Virus record (IMG/VR): IMGVR_UViG_3300025849_000022
Location: 24,309-88,308 of that record
Source: a virus
Reading direction: 5' to 3' (one strand)
Length of the DNA stretch: 64,000 nt
Both the position numbers and the translations under genes were made by a program. The notes under the pieces were generated by a model, which was not told the origin of the DNA, searched no databases, and saw only the letters and a program-made list of their open reading frames with translations. Position 1 is the first letter of the stretch. The number at the start of each line of letters is the position of its first letter. Below are positions 18,819 through 54,715 of the stretch, in pieces.

Positions 18819-19292
18819 CTAAACTTGTTCTAATCTTTCCATTAAACGTTCAGCACGGTTAGTAACTTGTTTATGCCATCTTGAATCTCTACCTTCTACT
18901 GCGGCAGTTTTCCAATCTTCTTTAATGATTGCGGCATGCATCTTTTTAAACTTGCTTAACCTAGTTCTACCCATATTAAACATCATATTAACCAAGATTT
19001 GCTGGACTTCGTCTGGTAAGTCTCCAAATACCCCTGCTTCGTATAGCAACTCACACTCAGATATTGCTGTGTCGAGGTCTCTTTCAAAACATTCTTTAAC
19101 ACGTTCTTCTGATACTGGTGTGCCAACCTCCGCTCCATGCTCTGGATCGGTGTCGAGGACCAAATGGCCCACTCCGAAAGTCGGGTATCCCAGGTGGTCG
19201 AGGTAAACTTCATTGACTACTCCTTCATCTATTTTGAGTTGCTCAAATACAGCATCTCTATCTAACTTTGTGTCTCTTCCAAATAATCCCAT
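18819..19292 (-). CDS. endolysin, T4-lysozyme (GH24)-like
   Basis: DEG...YLDHLGYPTFGVGHL catalytic region, NMMFNMG, SRWHKQVTNRAERL. Confidence 0.9.
   Translation of the reverse strand: MGLFGRDTKLDRDAVFEQLKIDEGVVNEVYLDHLGYPTFGVGHLVLDTDPEHGAEVGTPVSEERVKECFERDLDTAISECELLYEAGVFGDLPDEVQQILVNMMFNMGRTRLSKFKKMHAAIIKEDWKTAAVEGRDSRWHKQVTNRAERLMERLEQV
18983..19213 (-). CDS. putative overlapping gene nested in the endolysin (+1 frame, 76 aa)
   Basis: AAGGAG-6 nt-ATG; endolysin codons across this interval avoid +1-frame stops. Confidence 0.45.
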   Translation of the reverse strand: MKFTSTTWDTRLSEWAIWSSTPIQSMERRLAHQYQKNVLKNVLKETSTQQYLSVSCYTKQGYLETYQTKSSKSWLI

Positions 19293-23942: not shown

Positions 23943-24694
23943 ATTTTCCTCAATAATAAAACATCATCGCTACCTTCTTTAGAAAGTGTAAATCTACCTT
24001 CGCTAAAATTGTTGACTACATATGATTTGCCAATTGCATCAGCAAATGCCAAGTCATCACTTAACATACTTCTAATAGGTTCTGACGAAATGTCTTCTAA
24101 TATATCTTTTTGACCAAAGTTGACTAATTCAAATTCAAATACTCTCTTGCCTCTTTGAAATTGTATTCTATCTTTATCTGTGTCTTTATCTAAATTAACG
24201 TTTGACATCAAACTGTCAATTAAAAAGTTTCCTAAGTTTTCTTTATACTCGCTTTCTTGTGCTTCAACTTTATTTTGTTGAAATGTTTTTTTATCTACAT
24301 ACATATCTGGGTCCACTATTACAAAACTTTTCCATGTATCTTCGTGTAGTTTAAAGTCTTCATCTGCATAGTATGGCTTTACAGTCCATGCTAGTTTACC
24401 AGACAAGTTCTCTACATCATGTAAAATTTTATCTATTTTTTCAAAGACTTGGTTGTCTCTTTTCATTTCTACAAACACCATGTAGTGTCCGTCATCGTTT
24501 GCGGCTGGGGAAGCCTCGCAATCTAATGTTTCATATGCACCTGACTCTACAAAGTTTGATAAGTCTTTAGCAGGAGCCAAATCGTCTACATAAAACCCCA
24601 CTACAATTACATCTTTATTATCACCTGTCTTTGGTGAAAATTCATCTAAACTGATTTTAGGAATAACTAGATCAACAAGGTCGTGATGTTTCAT
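23939..24694 (-). CDS. hypothetical phage protein
   Basis: 251-aa ORF coupled to neighbours. Confidence 0.75.
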   Translation of the reverse strand: MKHHDLVDLVIPKISLDEFSPKTGDNKDVIVVGFYVDDLAPAKDLSNFVESGAYETLDCEASPAANDDGHYMVFVEMKRDNQVFEKIDKILHDVENLSGKLAWTVKPYYADEDFKLHEDTWKSFVIVDPDMYVDKKTFQQNKVEAQESEYKENLGNFLIDSLMSNVNLDKDTDKDRIQFQRGKRVFEFELVNFGQKDILEDISSEPIRSMLSDDLAFADAIGKSYVVNNFSEGRFTLSKEGSDDVLLLRKI

Positions 24695-41526: not shown

Positions 41527-42342
41527 CTACTTACCTTGTGGAGACTCTTCATCTAGGTTATCTACATGCTGAACATAATGTGGCATACCGTGATCTGCTA
41601 CAAAATCAAAGAATTTAAACTGTTTACAAGCGGCCCAAAAGCCTCTCCAGCCGTCTTTGATCCTTTGCCATATAGTTAAATTTCTAATATTACCAAAACT
41701 ATTGATATACATTAGTTTACCGCCATGTACAAACCCAAATAAAGCAGGTGGTACTCTTGGAACTATATCATTATTATTAACATATCTGTGATAAGAACCA
41801 ATCTTACATCCTTCCAGGTGTCTTCTAAACTTTCTAGTTCCTACTCTAGGTTGACCGAACGTTTTTAATTCCTCTACAGGTATTTTATCATGGCATAGCA
41901 TCTCTGCTACTAATACTGCCATTGCTCCACCTAAACTGTGTCCACACACATATACTTTTTCTTTATTCTTTCTGCCGTCTTTGACTGCTTTAAGAATACC
42001 TGGATAGACTTTGTTAGCCTCTTCCCAGAATCCTGAATGCACCATGCCGTTTCTATCATGTCTTACAGGTATTGTTTTTAAGTCTGCTAACACATCTGCA
42101 AACTGAGATGGCTCAGTTCCTCTACATGCTACAACTATTTTACCTGTTCCAAAATAAACCCATGCTTGAGCATTTTCTACAGAAACAAATACAGGATTCT
42201 TTTTACCAAATCCAGGAGGTCGTTTCTTTTGTCTTTCAGGATCATCTGGATCAAGGTAACTACGCCCTGCCAGTCTTGCCATTACTTTGGCTTGTGATAT
42301 CTCTTCCAGATTGTCAGAGATAAGTTTGTTTTCATTGCTCAT
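41527..42342 (-). CDS. class 3 lipase
   Basis: VACRGT, VHSGF, GHSLGG, TFGQPRVG, NDIVPRVP, DH. Confidence 0.88.
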   Translation of the reverse strand: MSNENKLISDNLEEISQAKVMARLAGRSYLDPDDPERQKKRPPGFGKKNPVFVSVENAQAWVYFGTGKIVVACRGTEPSQFADVLADLKTIPVRHDRNGMVHSGFWEEANKVYPGILKAVKDGRKNKEKVYVCGHSLGGAMAVLVAEMLCHDKIPVEELKTFGQPRVGTRKFRRHLEGCKIGSYHRYVNNNDIVPRVPPALFGFVHGGKLMYINSFGNIRNLTIWQRIKDGWRGFWAACKQFKFFDFVADHGMPHYVQHVDNLDEESPQGK

Positions 42343-42413
42343 AATTACTCCTACCTAATTATGCTAGTATTTATCTATCGATAAATAAGAATATTACTGT
42401 AGGAGTAATTTAA

Positions 42414-42515
42414 ATGGTAACTGAATTAGTTCCGTATTCTTTTAAGAAAGATATGTTGTTGGTCTGCTCTATAGGACTCAACATAGGATTTATTATAGGC
42501 ATTCTGCTTATATAA
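42414..42515 (+). CDS. unannotated 33-aa hydrophobic peptide
   Basis: GATAAATA motif, AGGAG RBS, MVTELVPYSFKKDMLLVCSIGLNIGFIIGILLI, then a terminator. Confidence 0.6.
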   Translation: MVTELVPYSFKKDMLLVCSIGLNIGFIIGILLI

Positions 42516-42542
42516 GAAAAGCCCCACTAAAGTGAGGCTTTA
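42516..42542. terminator. bidirectional terminator-like hairpin
   Basis: AAAAGCCCCAC-TAAA-GTGAGGCTTT between convergent small ORFs. Confidence 0.6.
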
Positions 42543-42589
42543 TAATTGTATCTGATATAACCTTTGCTCTGGGCAAGAGTGATATTACT

Positions 42590-42766
42590 TTAGAATCTTA
42601 AGATAGGTTCAATTGCGAGGTACATAAACCAGACCATAAAGGCTAAGCCACTAAACGTGAAGCACGTCTCTCCGTCTGGACAATACTTCTCTTTGAAGTC
42701 TGCCAAAAATTTGGGTAAATCTGTAAAGGTTTCAGAAACAAAACTTTTAATTGTATCTGTTGTCAT
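42590..42766 (-). CDS. unannotated 58-aa protein (CPDGETC motif plus C-terminal TM)
   Basis: AGGAG RBS; MTTDTIKSFVSETFTDLPKFLADFKEKYCPDGETCFTFSGLAFMVWFMYLAIEPILRF. Confidence 0.75.
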   Translation of the reverse strand: MTTDTIKSFVSETFTDLPKFLADFKEKYCPDGETCFTFSGLAFMVWFMYLAIEPILRF

Positions 42767-42960
42767 TATATTCTCCTAGTCTAATTACAATTAGCACTAG
42801 TCATTCACAGATTCTTACGAACTCTGCTCGGGGGTTAAAGTTCCTTAACTTTTGTGATTTCGTATGTTGTATCTTCGCATTGAGACCTACAGCGGATACT
42901 TACCGCTACAACCGACAATCAATCAACCGTCCCGTTGTGGAAGAGACCAATGATCTTCCA
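42767..42960 (-). ncRNA. structured ~190-nt 5' leader (candidate cis-regulatory RNA)
   Basis: six predicted stems between GATAAATA and the RBS. Confidence 0.55.
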
Positions 42961-43007
42961 AAGAGTATTTATCTATCATTAACACATCAGTTAAGTTTTA
43001 TGGTATT

Positions 43008-44861
43008 TTAAGTCGAAATTAAAACTTTGCCCCAACCTTGTCTTCTTTTGTAATACATTCTGTCCATGTATTCTTCTTCGCTATCACAGGGCATGATTAG
43101 ATCAAGTGTGTATTCTGTTTTGTCTTTGACTAACTCTGCTTCTTCGTCATTGATGTATTCCATAAAGTTATAACCAAAGTTCATTTGAGTTGGGTAACTC
43201 ACATTAAGGTGTGTCACATAGAATGTTTGTAGTTTCATAAGTTGCGGATAATACTTCTCTGGTAAGTCTAACCATTCTCTGCTGTAGTGTTTGTCAATGA
43301 ACTCAAATATCTTTAATGGTTCCTTGTGGAAGTTACTTTGTGCTGACCACATAAGTGTATGTCCGCTAAAGCCATCTGCTATTCCTGTTTCTAAGTATTC
43401 AGTTAGTTGTGCTTTTGCTGTGTCGAACAACTGCTTTACATAGCCATCGTCTTCTTGTATAATCACCCACAGTCTATTGTAAAACTCAAAGTAACTCATG
43501 TCTTTGTACTTGCGTAGGAACCTACTTAATATTTGTGTCCAACCGTAGTTGTGAAAATTATTGATCATCCAAGCATACATCCAACTGTCTATAAACTTAG
43601 GCATAGGCATGTCCTTGGTACCGCGGACCAACGTAACACTTTCACTGATGCCATCTTCTTCCTCAAAGCCTGATATATAATCTTTCACAACCACTGTATC
43701 TATTTCATGTTCTGTTCTTTGGCCAGGTGTGTTAAGGTGTGCGTTCTCTAGTAATTGTGCTAACCAACTTTCAATAGCATTGTGTTGGCCCATTTCAATT
43801 ACATCACACAAACCTTTACTCCAACTTTCAAATGTTTCTTTGGGTAAGCCTAGTATGAGTTCTGTGTAACTAGGTATCTGTTCTCTATTACATATATCAA
43901 ATATATGTTTTAGATTACTAAACTCCATGTTACGTCTTTTAATTTCTTCTAGTACATCCATGTCCATACTTTGTACACTTAGAGTTAGTCCTCTGTTGAA
44001 GCCACTACTAATAAACTTCTTAACAATTTCCATAATCTCTTCTGAACTGTTCTTGTACCACGTGGCGTCTACTACTTGTGGATAACCAAACTCTTTTTGT
44101 AGTTCTACAAGTTCTTCTGTGAACTTCATATCTCTATCTGTGAACACACCAAAGTTTGCGTCTGCTATTGTAACGTAATCCATTTTGTTGTGTGCCATCC
44201 AATGTAATTCTTGTAACACTTTTTCTTCAGGAAACTTTTTAAGTTTGCTGTAAGTTAAACCGCCCCAGTCACAGAATGTACAAGCAAAAGGGCAACCGCG
44301 ATTAGTTTCTAATGTGCCGTTCCACAGTACACCTGGATTGTCTGCTATTATCTTTTCAAACACACCTGTCAAGTAAGGACTTGGTATGTCTAGTTCGTCT
44401 AGTCTAGGATAGTTGTATATCTTTTCTATTAGTTTGCCACTAATTAAATTGCGTAAGATATCTGTAAAACTCTGTTCGCCTTCTGCTAAACTGATTGAGT
44501 CTACATATTTGTGATGCTTGAAAAACTCTTCCTCTTCTGGTCTGTCAGTTACCTGTGGTCCACCAAATACTATTTTACATTTAGGGTAACGTTGTTTAAC
44601 ACGTTGAGCAACTGCTTTACTCCATTCCCAATTCCACATGTAGCAACTGAATGCAATAATGTCTGGGTCTTCTAGTCTGTCAACTAAGGTGTCTACATTT
44701 TCTCTGCGGAATATTATGTCCTTGAGATCTACATTTTGTTTTATATCTTCAAACTGACTAGCATAACTCCACAAACATCCAATGCTGTAAGGAATCCAAT
44801 AACCAGTTTTACCAGCAATACCAAATCGAAAGTTAGGCTGGCATAGATATAAGTTTAGCAT
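43008..44861 (-). CDS. B12-binding radical SAM enzyme
   Basis: IAFSCYMWN...VFGGPQ cobalamin-type domain, ETNRGCPFACTFCDW. Confidence 0.88.
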   Translation of the reverse strand: MLNLYLCQPNFRFGIAGKTGYWIPYSIGCLWSYASQFEDIKQNVDLKDIIFRRENVDTLVDRLEDPDIIAFSCYMWNWEWSKAVAQRVKQRYPKCKIVFGGPQVTDRPEEEEFFKHHKYVDSISLAEGEQSFTDILRNLISGKLIEKIYNYPRLDELDIPSPYLTGVFEKIIADNPGVLWNGTLETNRGCPFACTFCDWGGLTYSKLKKFPEEKVLQELHWMAHNKMDYVTIADANFGVFTDRDMKFTEELVELQKEFGYPQVVDATWYKNSSEEIMEIVKKFISSGFNRGLTLSVQSMDMDVLEEIKRRNMEFSNLKHIFDICNREQIPSYTELILGLPKETFESWSKGLCDVIEMGQHNAIESWLAQLLENAHLNTPGQRTEHEIDTVVVKDYISGFEEEDGISESVTLVRGTKDMPMPKFIDSWMYAWMINNFHNYGWTQILSRFLRKYKDMSYFEFYNRLWVIIQEDDGYVKQLFDTAKAQLTEYLETGIADGFSGHTLMWSAQSNFHKEPLKIFEFIDKHYSREWLDLPEKYYPQLMKLQTFYVTHLNVSYPTQMNFGYNFMEYINDEEAELVKDKTEYTLDLIMPCDSEEEYMDRMYYKRRQGWGKVLIST

Positions 44862-44941: not shown

Positions 44942-45235
44942 TTACTTAAAAGAGTCTCTGGCTTGTTTTACTAAATCTGCTTTCTTCTTACGCAAATCTA
45001 ATTCAACTCCATTATCTCTTGCTAATAGTTCTAACTCTGCTTTAGTCTTTTTATTCAACTCAGCGGCTGTTGGAACTTTAGATGTAGCAGGTGCCTTTGG
45101 GGCAGGTGCTGGTGCTGGTGTAGGCTTAGGTGCAGGTTTGCTTTCTACTACTTCATCTTTTTTAAAAAATGATTTATAAACAACAAATGCTAAAATTATT
45201 CCTACAACAACTATACCGATAGTAGATTGATCCAT
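44942..45235 (-). CDS. membrane-anchored protein with Pro-rich linker and Rho-N/HeH-like tail
   Basis: N-terminal TM, PAPK repeats, LNKKTKAELELLARDNGVEL...KKADLV. Confidence 0.65.
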   Translation of the reverse strand: MDQSTIGIVVVGIILAFVVYKSFFKKDEVVESKPAPKPTPAPAPAPKAPATSKVPTAAELNKKTKAELELLARDNGVELDLRKKKADLVKQARDSFK

Positions 45236-54535: not shown

Positions 54536-54560
54536 ATCATCCTCCTAATTAAAGTTAGAT

Positions 54561-54622
54561 GCGTTCCTTCAGTTTTCACCTACTTCCGTCGTCGCTCTAC
54601 ATTTAGAGTGGCGATGAACGAG
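54561..54622 (-). ncRNA. glutamine-I (glnA-motif) riboswitch aptamer 2
   Basis: CGUUCA-P2-CGGAAGUA-GGU GAAA ACU-GAAGGAACGC. Confidence 0.85.
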
Positions 54623-54628
54623 TTCAGT

Positions 54629-54687
54629 GCGTTCCTTCGTCTTTTGACTACTTCCGTTCACTGCTACATTTAGAGTGAATGAACGAG
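54629..54687 (-). ncRNA. glutamine-I (glnA-motif) riboswitch aptamer 1
   Basis: CGUUCA-UUCAC..GUGAA-CGGAAGUA-GUC AAAA GAC-GAAGGAACGC. Confidence 0.85.
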
Positions 54688-54707
54688 TGTAACTTGCGTT
54701 ACATTAA

Positions 54708-54715
54708 TATTTATC
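54708..54715 (-). promoter_or_regulatory. T4-like late promoter motif GATAAATA (representative of many copies in the window)
   Basis: abuts the upstream terminator and precedes the riboswitch leader. Confidence 0.7.

Follow-up and report, generated by a model that had tools for sequence, protein, structure and literature searches.

A conserved structured leader in a putative late phage transcription unit

A folded RNA of ~195 nt, conserved and covarying across 69 homologues, forms the 5' leader of a gene for a 58-aa single-pass membrane peptide in an uncultured phage, and most likely controls the timing of peptide production. The locus lies on the minus strand of the window, a 64,000-nt stretch of IMG/VR record IMGVR_UViG_3300025849_000022 (positions 24,309 to 88,308), to which all coordinates refer. 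A multi-stem leader before this peptide had been proposed from the window sequence alone (the original prediction). The leader and the peptide are real: all of the described elements are found in place on the minus strand, and across the homologues the RNA is bound to one peptide gene. The transcription unit runs from a promoter motif through the leader, the Shine-Dalgarno (SD) sequence and the peptide ORF to an intrinsic terminator:

42966..42973, minus strand: late-type promoter motif GATAAATA; 13 copies in the window against 5.2 expected
42767..42965, minus strand: structured 5' leader RNA, whole element; 192.7 bits with covariance model R1, covariation among 69 homologues
42773..42777, minus strand: Shine-Dalgarno AGGAG, read from the sequence; AGGAG or AAGGAG is retained in relatives
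42590..42766, minus strand: 58-aa peptide gene (ORF); relatives stand behind 65 of 65 complete RNA copies
42512..42541, minus strand: intrinsic terminator closing the unit; 10-pair stem followed by a T-run

The non-coding stretch at 42965-42767 spans 199 bases. Twelve of the 13 window copies of GATAAATA lie on the gene strand, just 5' of ORFs or of a glutamine riboswitch; from this placement and the excess of copies we identify the motif as a T4-like late promoter of the phage. The leaders that follow the motif at other late genes in the window measure 5-80 nt. A single terminator-like site is present within 42300-43100, at 42541-42512. The unit is flanked by a B12-binding radical SAM gene upstream and a class-3 lipase gene downstream. 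We read the leader and peptide together as a putative self-contained late transcript of ~450 nt, judging from the arrangement of these signals.

Architecture of the leader RNA

Comparison of the homologues resolves the leader into the following helices:

42938..42960, minus strand: P1 hairpin UGGAAG(A)/(U)CUUCCA, its loop variable; 42960-42954 pairs with 42944-42938, nearly invariant
42829..42934, minus strand: P2, long-range helix with an AC bulge; 42934-42925 pairs with 42836-42829 and closes a three-way junction with P3 and P4
42855..42921, minus strand: P3 domain, variable in size and closed by N4-G-UCG/CGA-N4; contains P3a and the hairpins P3b (42906-42892) and P3c (42886-42871)
42837..42852, minus strand: P4 hairpin AAAGUU-NAGG-AACUUU, the invariant core; 6 of 6 pairs identical in 69/69 sequences
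42807..42827, minus strand: P5 hairpin capped by a GNRA (GUAA) tetraloop, with a single bulged base; 7 of 8 pairs compensatory
42777..42799, minus strand: P6 hairpin (C)UAGU-G-CUAA/UUAG-ACUA(G), its 3' arm running into the SD; 5 of 8 pairs covary

Covariation in P1 is confined to divergent members, with GGACG/CGUC at locus L193 and GCAAG/CUUGC at L207; the linker that follows, J1/2, reads ACAA. P2 pairs CGGG-AC-GGUU with AACC-CCCG and displays changes on both sides in seven of its eight pairs, for example CAGU/ACUG (L193) and CAAGC-A-AGU/ACU-GCUUG (L200). The P3 domain is branched in the window and reduced to a single hairpin in short variants of ~170 nt, with its size ranging from ~25 to ~90 nt; 19 of the 20 pairs in helices 3-7 of this region covary. 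P4 is the sole helix that never varies, and the identity holds in four members found independently of any RNA pattern. The loop of P5 appears as GUAA, GAGA or GUGA, and the base of the same helix changes from GCA/UGU to GUA/UAU, GCG/CGU or GCU/AGU in divergent members. P5 and P6 are separated by UGUGAA and a short linker, and the SD of relatives is positioned 0-3 nt past P6.

Twenty-eight columns are invariant in 69/69 sequences and are located in J1/2, in P4 and in the segments after P2 and P5. The element thus combines a conserved unpaired and junction core with variable peripheral helices, as is characteristic of riboswitches. A fixed core accompanied by a P3 domain that is anything from one hairpin to a branched structure would be in line with known aptamers. 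The constancy of the P4 stem would be unusual for a plain helix, and would suit sequence-specific recognition by a protein as well as tertiary contacts.

Five of the seven originally described stems stand: UGGAAGA/UCUUCCA, the GAUU-UCG-GUUGUA domain, the inner GCGG/CCGC hairpin, the GUAA-loop stem and the hairpin closest to the ribosome-binding site. In the other two, CAAC/GUUG and GUUAAG/CUUUAAC, no compensatory changes are seen, and at some positions only 59-75% of sequences can form the pair; their bases instead form P2 and P4 and covary with their P2 partners.

No alternative helix with covariation support emerged from a search for at least four stacked pairs, and a naive pairwise scan for pseudoknots and alternative helices returned only noise. 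The strict search recovered nothing beyond invariant 4-bp complementarities—UUCC with GGAA of the P4 loop, CACA with UGUG, AGCA with UGCU—which may be due to chance. We do not claim these pairings, because divergent members compensate the base of P5 and lose a pair in the alternatives. The SD is predicted to be unpaired with a mean probability of 0.53. In the clade of L033, L047 and L051 the 3' arm of P6 is missing, and UGCUUU is able to pair with GGAGGCA of the SD, as read from the sequence.

Comparative support for the fold

Taken alone, the window leader folds no better than chance (minimum free energy -49.9 kcal/mol, z = -1.04; 36 of 200 shuffles fold equally well), and the support for its structure is comparative, drawn from its relatives. 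Scanning IMG/VR with the peptide yielded six close loci, in which the leaders are 94% identical and every stem substitution is compensated. Two independent DNA patterns each retrieved the same 15 viral contigs. A looser pattern applied to metagenomes matched at least 119 stretches, and nhmmer identified about 75 true homologues among the matches listed; distinct complete elements number 65 among these metagenome matches. IMG/VR and metagenomes together provide 69 full-length distinct homologues, from at least ~75 loci overall.

When 64 distinct relatives are aligned with MAFFT, blind to structure, pairing is found in 93.8% of cells and double changes at 25 pairs. The covariation score of this alignment is 0.287, against at most 0.07 in slid controls, where pairing drops to 45-47%. 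A lack of conserved structure or covariation among homologous loci would have refuted the original prediction, but covariation is strong: in the model-fitted alignment (n=69) 96.9% of cells pair, 40 of 56 pairs show compensatory changes, and the score reaches 0.352 against at most 0.056 in slid controls. None of 500 shuffles of the 69-sequence alignment attains the observed value on any measure. The leader therefore possesses a conserved secondary structure supported by covariation, which is a property expected of riboswitches.

As the metagenome members had been fished with part of the conserved core, we took a search route independent of the RNA patterns. IMG/VR was scanned with an alignment of 31 peptides, and R1 was run on all 38 peptide loci found, 16 of which carry the RNA. 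Loci L193, L200, L205 and L207 score 73-133 bits with R1 and match none of the DNA patterns used; helices that had earlier seemed invariant covary in them. The invariance of ACCCC, AGCA and UGUGAA results partly from the metagenome fishing: these four pattern-independent members vary there. All members belong to one syntenic phage lineage, so that conservation is partly shared ancestry and raw conservation is inflated. The counts of compensatory changes and the slid controls, both derived from the alignments, do not depend on shared ancestry. Comparison across the homologues demonstrates selection on the leader fold.

The RNA is tied to one peptide family

The window peptide consists of a hydrophilic N-terminal half, the sequence KYCPDGETC and a hydrophobic C-terminal segment. 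The CxxxxxC motif reported before a hydrophobic helix is indeed present, as C29-x5-C35 ahead of this segment. Peptide homologues found behind the RNA are 53-67 aa long and 31-84% identical to that of the window, and their length differences amount to whole codons. Pfam, PHROGs, a search of 5.8 billion proteins and the ESM Atlas assign the peptide no family, name or fold, the last without an informative neighbour. The sole gene linked to the RNA thus offers no pointer to an effector.

Among the matches listed, every complete RNA copy (65/65) lies between ATAAATA, retained upstream of the element in all 65, and one peptide family. These copies and the RNA contigs described below place the element in a 5' UTR, on the same strand as the adjoining ORF, where a riboswitch would be expected. 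Exactly one RNA copy is present in each phage record, with none elsewhere in them (six records, 88-250 kb), and R1 detects no further copy in any fetched locus. About 22 of the 38 peptide loci in IMG/VR are leaderless: 18 of these stand directly behind an Hsp20 gene, and others behind a PolA-like gene. No complete RNA copy without the peptide gene was found in the loci examined. The RNA is thus dependent on the gene, whereas the gene can do without the RNA; this is the hallmark of a cis-element.

The peptide had also been assigned a metal or redox role, solely on account of CxxxxxC. Comparison does not support this assignment: in the clade of L042, L045 and L104 both Cys are gone (KHRTTDITD where others have KYCPDGQTC) and the full leader RNA is retained, which argues against a tie between the RNA and such chemistry of the peptide. 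The window peptide lacks the three residues N-D-I after the second Cys (42660-42662) that nearly all relatives possess, and an RNA contig from another study encodes the form that is 9 nt longer.

Leaderless sister loci (L210:717-2052 and 17 similar ones, L198-L222) display a fixed order of Hsp20, peptide, IscA/HesB-like protein and GH24 lysozyme. L007 lacks the IscA-like gene, and there the peptide ORF directly precedes and overlaps the GH24 lysozyme ORF. This overlap raised the possibility that the peptide is a holin. The reading is weakened by the IscA-like gene that intervenes in most sister loci and by the position of the window lysozyme (18819-19292): the peptide gene is not beside an endolysin gene, as one in a lysis cassette would be, but 23 kb distant.

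Carrier phages and their distribution

The carriers are a lineage of uncultured aquatic jumbo T4-related phages. The nearest matches to their DNA polymerase (41-49% identity) are the enzymes of jumbo phages such as Sinorhizobium phage Phosso, Agrobacterium phage Atu_ph07 and phage CBB. The IMG/VR record of the window contains 88,308 bases and is 24% complete by CheckV, and a 250-kb relative is 66% complete. Completeness of 24-66% for records of 88-250 kb (G000 and G001-G005, the latter being the records behind L193, L207, L016, L037 and L006) implies genomes of roughly 370 kb. Synteny across the members comprises NadE, a protein of ~97 aa, in some of them a radical SAM gene, the RNA with its peptide, the lipase and a 54-aa membrane peptide.

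Among 50,697 records of isolate phages, neither blastn with the DNA nor tblastn with the peptide, including that of the sister group, produced a match. A pattern scan of 185,579 prokaryote species gave 24 matches, one of them in a Pelagibacteraceae MAG. None extends past the pattern under nhmmer, and we consider them to be chance matches that hold no clue to the host.

Transcription of the unit

Evidence for transcription comes from assembled contigs, whose depths and ends are weak hints. The stretch is contained in 20 runs from 13 studies, 16 of them RNA-library runs. An estuary run contains a 494-nt RNA contig covering 42471-42944 at depth 96, and a run labelled freshwater from a second study contains a 521-nt RNA contig covering 42439-42950 at depth 58; contigs of neighbouring regions in these two runs have depths of 4-30. 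In a third run the contig end is at 42930, and in a fourth (X1) the contig crosses the promoter. The 494-nt and 521-nt contigs match the unit from promoter to terminator, and thereby hint, weakly, that leader and ORF are transcribed together as one discrete unit. A transcription start beside the ribosome-binding site, which would likewise have refuted the original prediction, is not observed: RNA contigs begin near the promoter, ~170 nt upstream of that site.

Relation to known RNA elements

The original prediction did not recognise the RNA as a known family, and the Rfam scan agrees. None of the 4,227 models of Rfam 15 matches the leader at gathering thresholds, and none matches 42300-43200 at E values up to 10. 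Eight diverse members likewise have no match at E values up to 1, known ribozyme families included. The same window scan detects a tandem glutamine riboswitch (RF01739) at 54558-54687 on the minus strand, 12 kb from the leader, and that model finds nothing at 42767-42965. The glutamine riboswitch element (54558-54715, minus strand) starts 20 nt past another copy of GATAAATA. It resembles our leader in its arrangement within the same genome—GATAAATA, structured leader, SD, small ORF, terminator—but shares no sequence or model similarity with it, and our RNA, at roughly three times the size, has six main helices and a three-way junction.

To our knowledge, nearly all validated riboswitch classes come from cellular genomes, and the phage examples are borrowed ones such as glutamine, preQ1 or c-di-GMP. 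Riboswitches controlling phage genes are documented in marine T4-like phages (PMC9004378). The Pelagimyophage and Melnitz papers mention known riboswitches only. The yjdF motif (PMC4793209) is similar to our element in being a complex conserved fold found almost only before one gene family that is uninformative on the ligand; the two have no homology, and our candidate differs in being restricted to phages and in preceding a ~60-aa peptide. A survey of candidate structured RNAs (PMC10690425) reports 8,495 unnamed motifs from IMG/VR and 10,006 in all. It shares with our work the IMG/VR source and motifs located within 25 nt upstream of phage genes, and may include our motif under a serial number, although its main text does not describe one upstream of a small membrane peptide. 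Compared with Rfam 15, the leader represents a new family of RNA, though the kind of element is a known one, and it may be present in that survey.

Interpretation of the leader

We tentatively favour the reading that the RNA is a new cis-regulatory leader of riboswitch type, which sets translation late in infection. Several features lead us to favour a sensor of this type: the conserved junction core with a variable periphery, the GNRA-capped helix, the fixed spacing to the SD, the dependence on the gene, and the clade without the 3' arm of P6, where conserved UGCU can pair with the SD itself. The occurrence of a riboswitch in identical layout in the same genome and the documented riboswitches of marine T4-like phages point in the same direction. 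Transcription would start a few bases past GATAAATA, late in infection, and the first ~195 nt would fold into P1, the three-way junction in which P2 closes the variable P3 and the invariant P4, the GNRA-capped P5, and P6. The 3' arm of P6 would enter the SD of the membrane-peptide gene. An effector, most likely a small molecule or an ion, would be bound at the P2-P3-P4 junction, where unpaired bases (ACAA, the AC bulge, GAG and UGNA) are invariant. Binding would alter the openness of P6 and the SD to ribosomes, and so set the amount of peptide. We infer control at translation, a small-molecule effector and P6 with the SD as the output. Several observations count against this reading: the SD is predicted to be about half open on average, alternative helices have no covariation support, the P4 stem never varies, the window leader folds with unremarkable energy, and conservation is inflated in part by the metagenome fishing and by shared ancestry.

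The invariance of P4 also suits a protein-binding operator, in which a phage or host RNA-binding protein would recognise P4, perhaps together with the GGA boxes of P1 (GGAAG) and the SD (AGGAG), and would repress or activate translation in the manner of T4 translational repressors or CsrA-type regulators. Identity of the whole hairpin, stem included, in 69/69 members is typical of sequence-specific recognition, and GGA motifs are found both in the loop of a hairpin and in the SD. T4-like phages use translational operators, those of gp32, gp43 and RegA, which lends this account precedent. The T4 operators (the gene 32 pseudoknot, the gene 43 hairpin and the RegA sites) are, like our element, cis elements of T4-type phage mRNAs, and they set translation initiation. 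They are, however, under ~40 nt and are bound by their own product or by RegA, whereas an RNA of ~195 nt with ten helices and a three-way junction far exceeds known phage operators in size. Autogenous control is improbable for a gene whose product is a membrane peptide and not an RNA-binding protein, and no candidate binding protein was identified. The idea of a repeated operator was rejected, as the window holds no second P4 hairpin: one copy in 64 kb leaves no visible regulon. We regard an operator as unlikely. A constitutive structural leader that senses nothing, and serves as an mRNA stabiliser against 5'-end-dependent decay, a processing guide, or a ribosome standby or enhancer site, would account for the stable P1 hairpin within ~5 nt of the predicted 5' end and for an SD that is not strongly sequestered. 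The unit's RNA contigs, deeper than their neighbours, also fit a stable transcript, if weakly. Such a leader would need neither 28 invariant positions nor a junction nor a GNRA-capped helix, yet these are kept across peptides that are only 31-50% identical to that of the window, and other late genes of the window manage with the 5-80 nt that follow GATAAATA; a purely structural role is in our view quite unlikely.

There are two further explanations. The RNA could itself be functional—trans-acting, self-cleaving or otherwise catalytic—and merely be co-transcribed with the peptide, since its size, complex fold and invariant unpaired bases would fit a ribozyme or a stable non-coding RNA as well. 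This is very unlikely, given that the peptide gene accompanies every complete RNA copy found, P6 and the SD keep a fixed distance, no terminator separates RNA and ORF, RNA contigs span both, and no known ribozyme family matches. The peptide mRNA could alternatively be of a type-I-toxin-like or lysis-related kind, with a folded 5' UTR that blocks translation of the primary transcript until processing takes place or an antisense RNA is taken away. A product below 70 aa with one hydrophobic helix (58 aa, where type I toxins are small hydrophobic peptides under about 60 aa) and a long structured 5' UTR are also seen in the mRNAs of hok, tisB and zorO, and the leaderless sister-group peptide is encoded near a GH24 lysozyme. 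Against this, the locus yielded no small RNA gene, antisense or divergent, under a promoter of its own: 42300-43100 contains no sigma-70-like promoter on either strand, in a search that leaves phage-specific promoters of other types open, and no promoter-like site that would drive an opposite-strand transcript. The plus-strand copy of GATAAATA nearby drives a separate 33-aa ORF beyond the terminator. The IscA-like gene between peptide and lysozyme in most sister loci, and the 23 kb to the lysozyme in the window, speak against a lysis function. The unit also differs from type I toxin mRNAs in belonging to a late promoter of a lytic phage, and the UTRs of those toxins do not display comparable conservation of a junction. 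A role of this kind is highly improbable.

Returning to a sensor of riboswitch type, one could go further and propose a phage-only class without a cellular counterpart that evolved in jumbo phages, its junction binding a host metabolite, ion or signalling nucleotide and thereby timing a late membrane peptide that acts on the host envelope. We consider this extended version rather doubtful. If true, the riboswitch would report the state of the infected cell, and the peptide might, for example, time lysis, serve in superinfection exclusion or inhibit one of the host's membrane proteins. A phage-only fold with strong covariation, transcribed in the sea and in estuaries and tied to a tiny membrane-peptide gene, constitutes a testable candidate, either for a phage-specific sensor or for a new RNA-protein control circuit. 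The RNA is a handle on the late-infection signal monitored by abundant uncultured jumbo phages. It is equally a handle on the role of a widespread orphan peptide family, which is also present, leaderless, in Hsp20-carrying phage contigs. Model R1 and alignment A9 suffice to begin probing and reporter work without a cultured host.

Further features of the locus

Two candidate reading frames within the leader region were rejected. A plus-strand ORF of 86 aa (42751-43011) was dismissed because relatives differ by 1-nt indels inside it. A conserved upstream ORF in the leader was likewise discarded on inspection: the 7-codon AUG frame in P6 is missing in most relatives.

A copy of GATAAATA on the plus strand (42380-42387) is followed by AGGAG and a 33-aa hydrophobic ORF (42414-42515) that converges on the peptide unit. 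The hairpin at 42518-42541 is common to this ORF and the peptide unit, and may be a two-way terminator. Upstream of the unit, a protein of ~97 aa (44942-45235, minus strand) is conserved and corresponds to cluster U4 in related loci; it has no Pfam match, and its hydrophobic N-terminal segment is followed by a linker rich in Pro, Ala and Lys and by a C-terminal motif resembling helix-extension-helix. The inverted repeat TTAAC-N6-GTTAA is found at 42979-42994 on the minus strand, 5 nt 5' of GATAAATA, and the same repeat or a close variant is present in many of the RNA-bearing loci; it could be a protein-binding site or a further promoter element. The conserved block reaches ~55 nt upstream, even in loci without the radical SAM gene.
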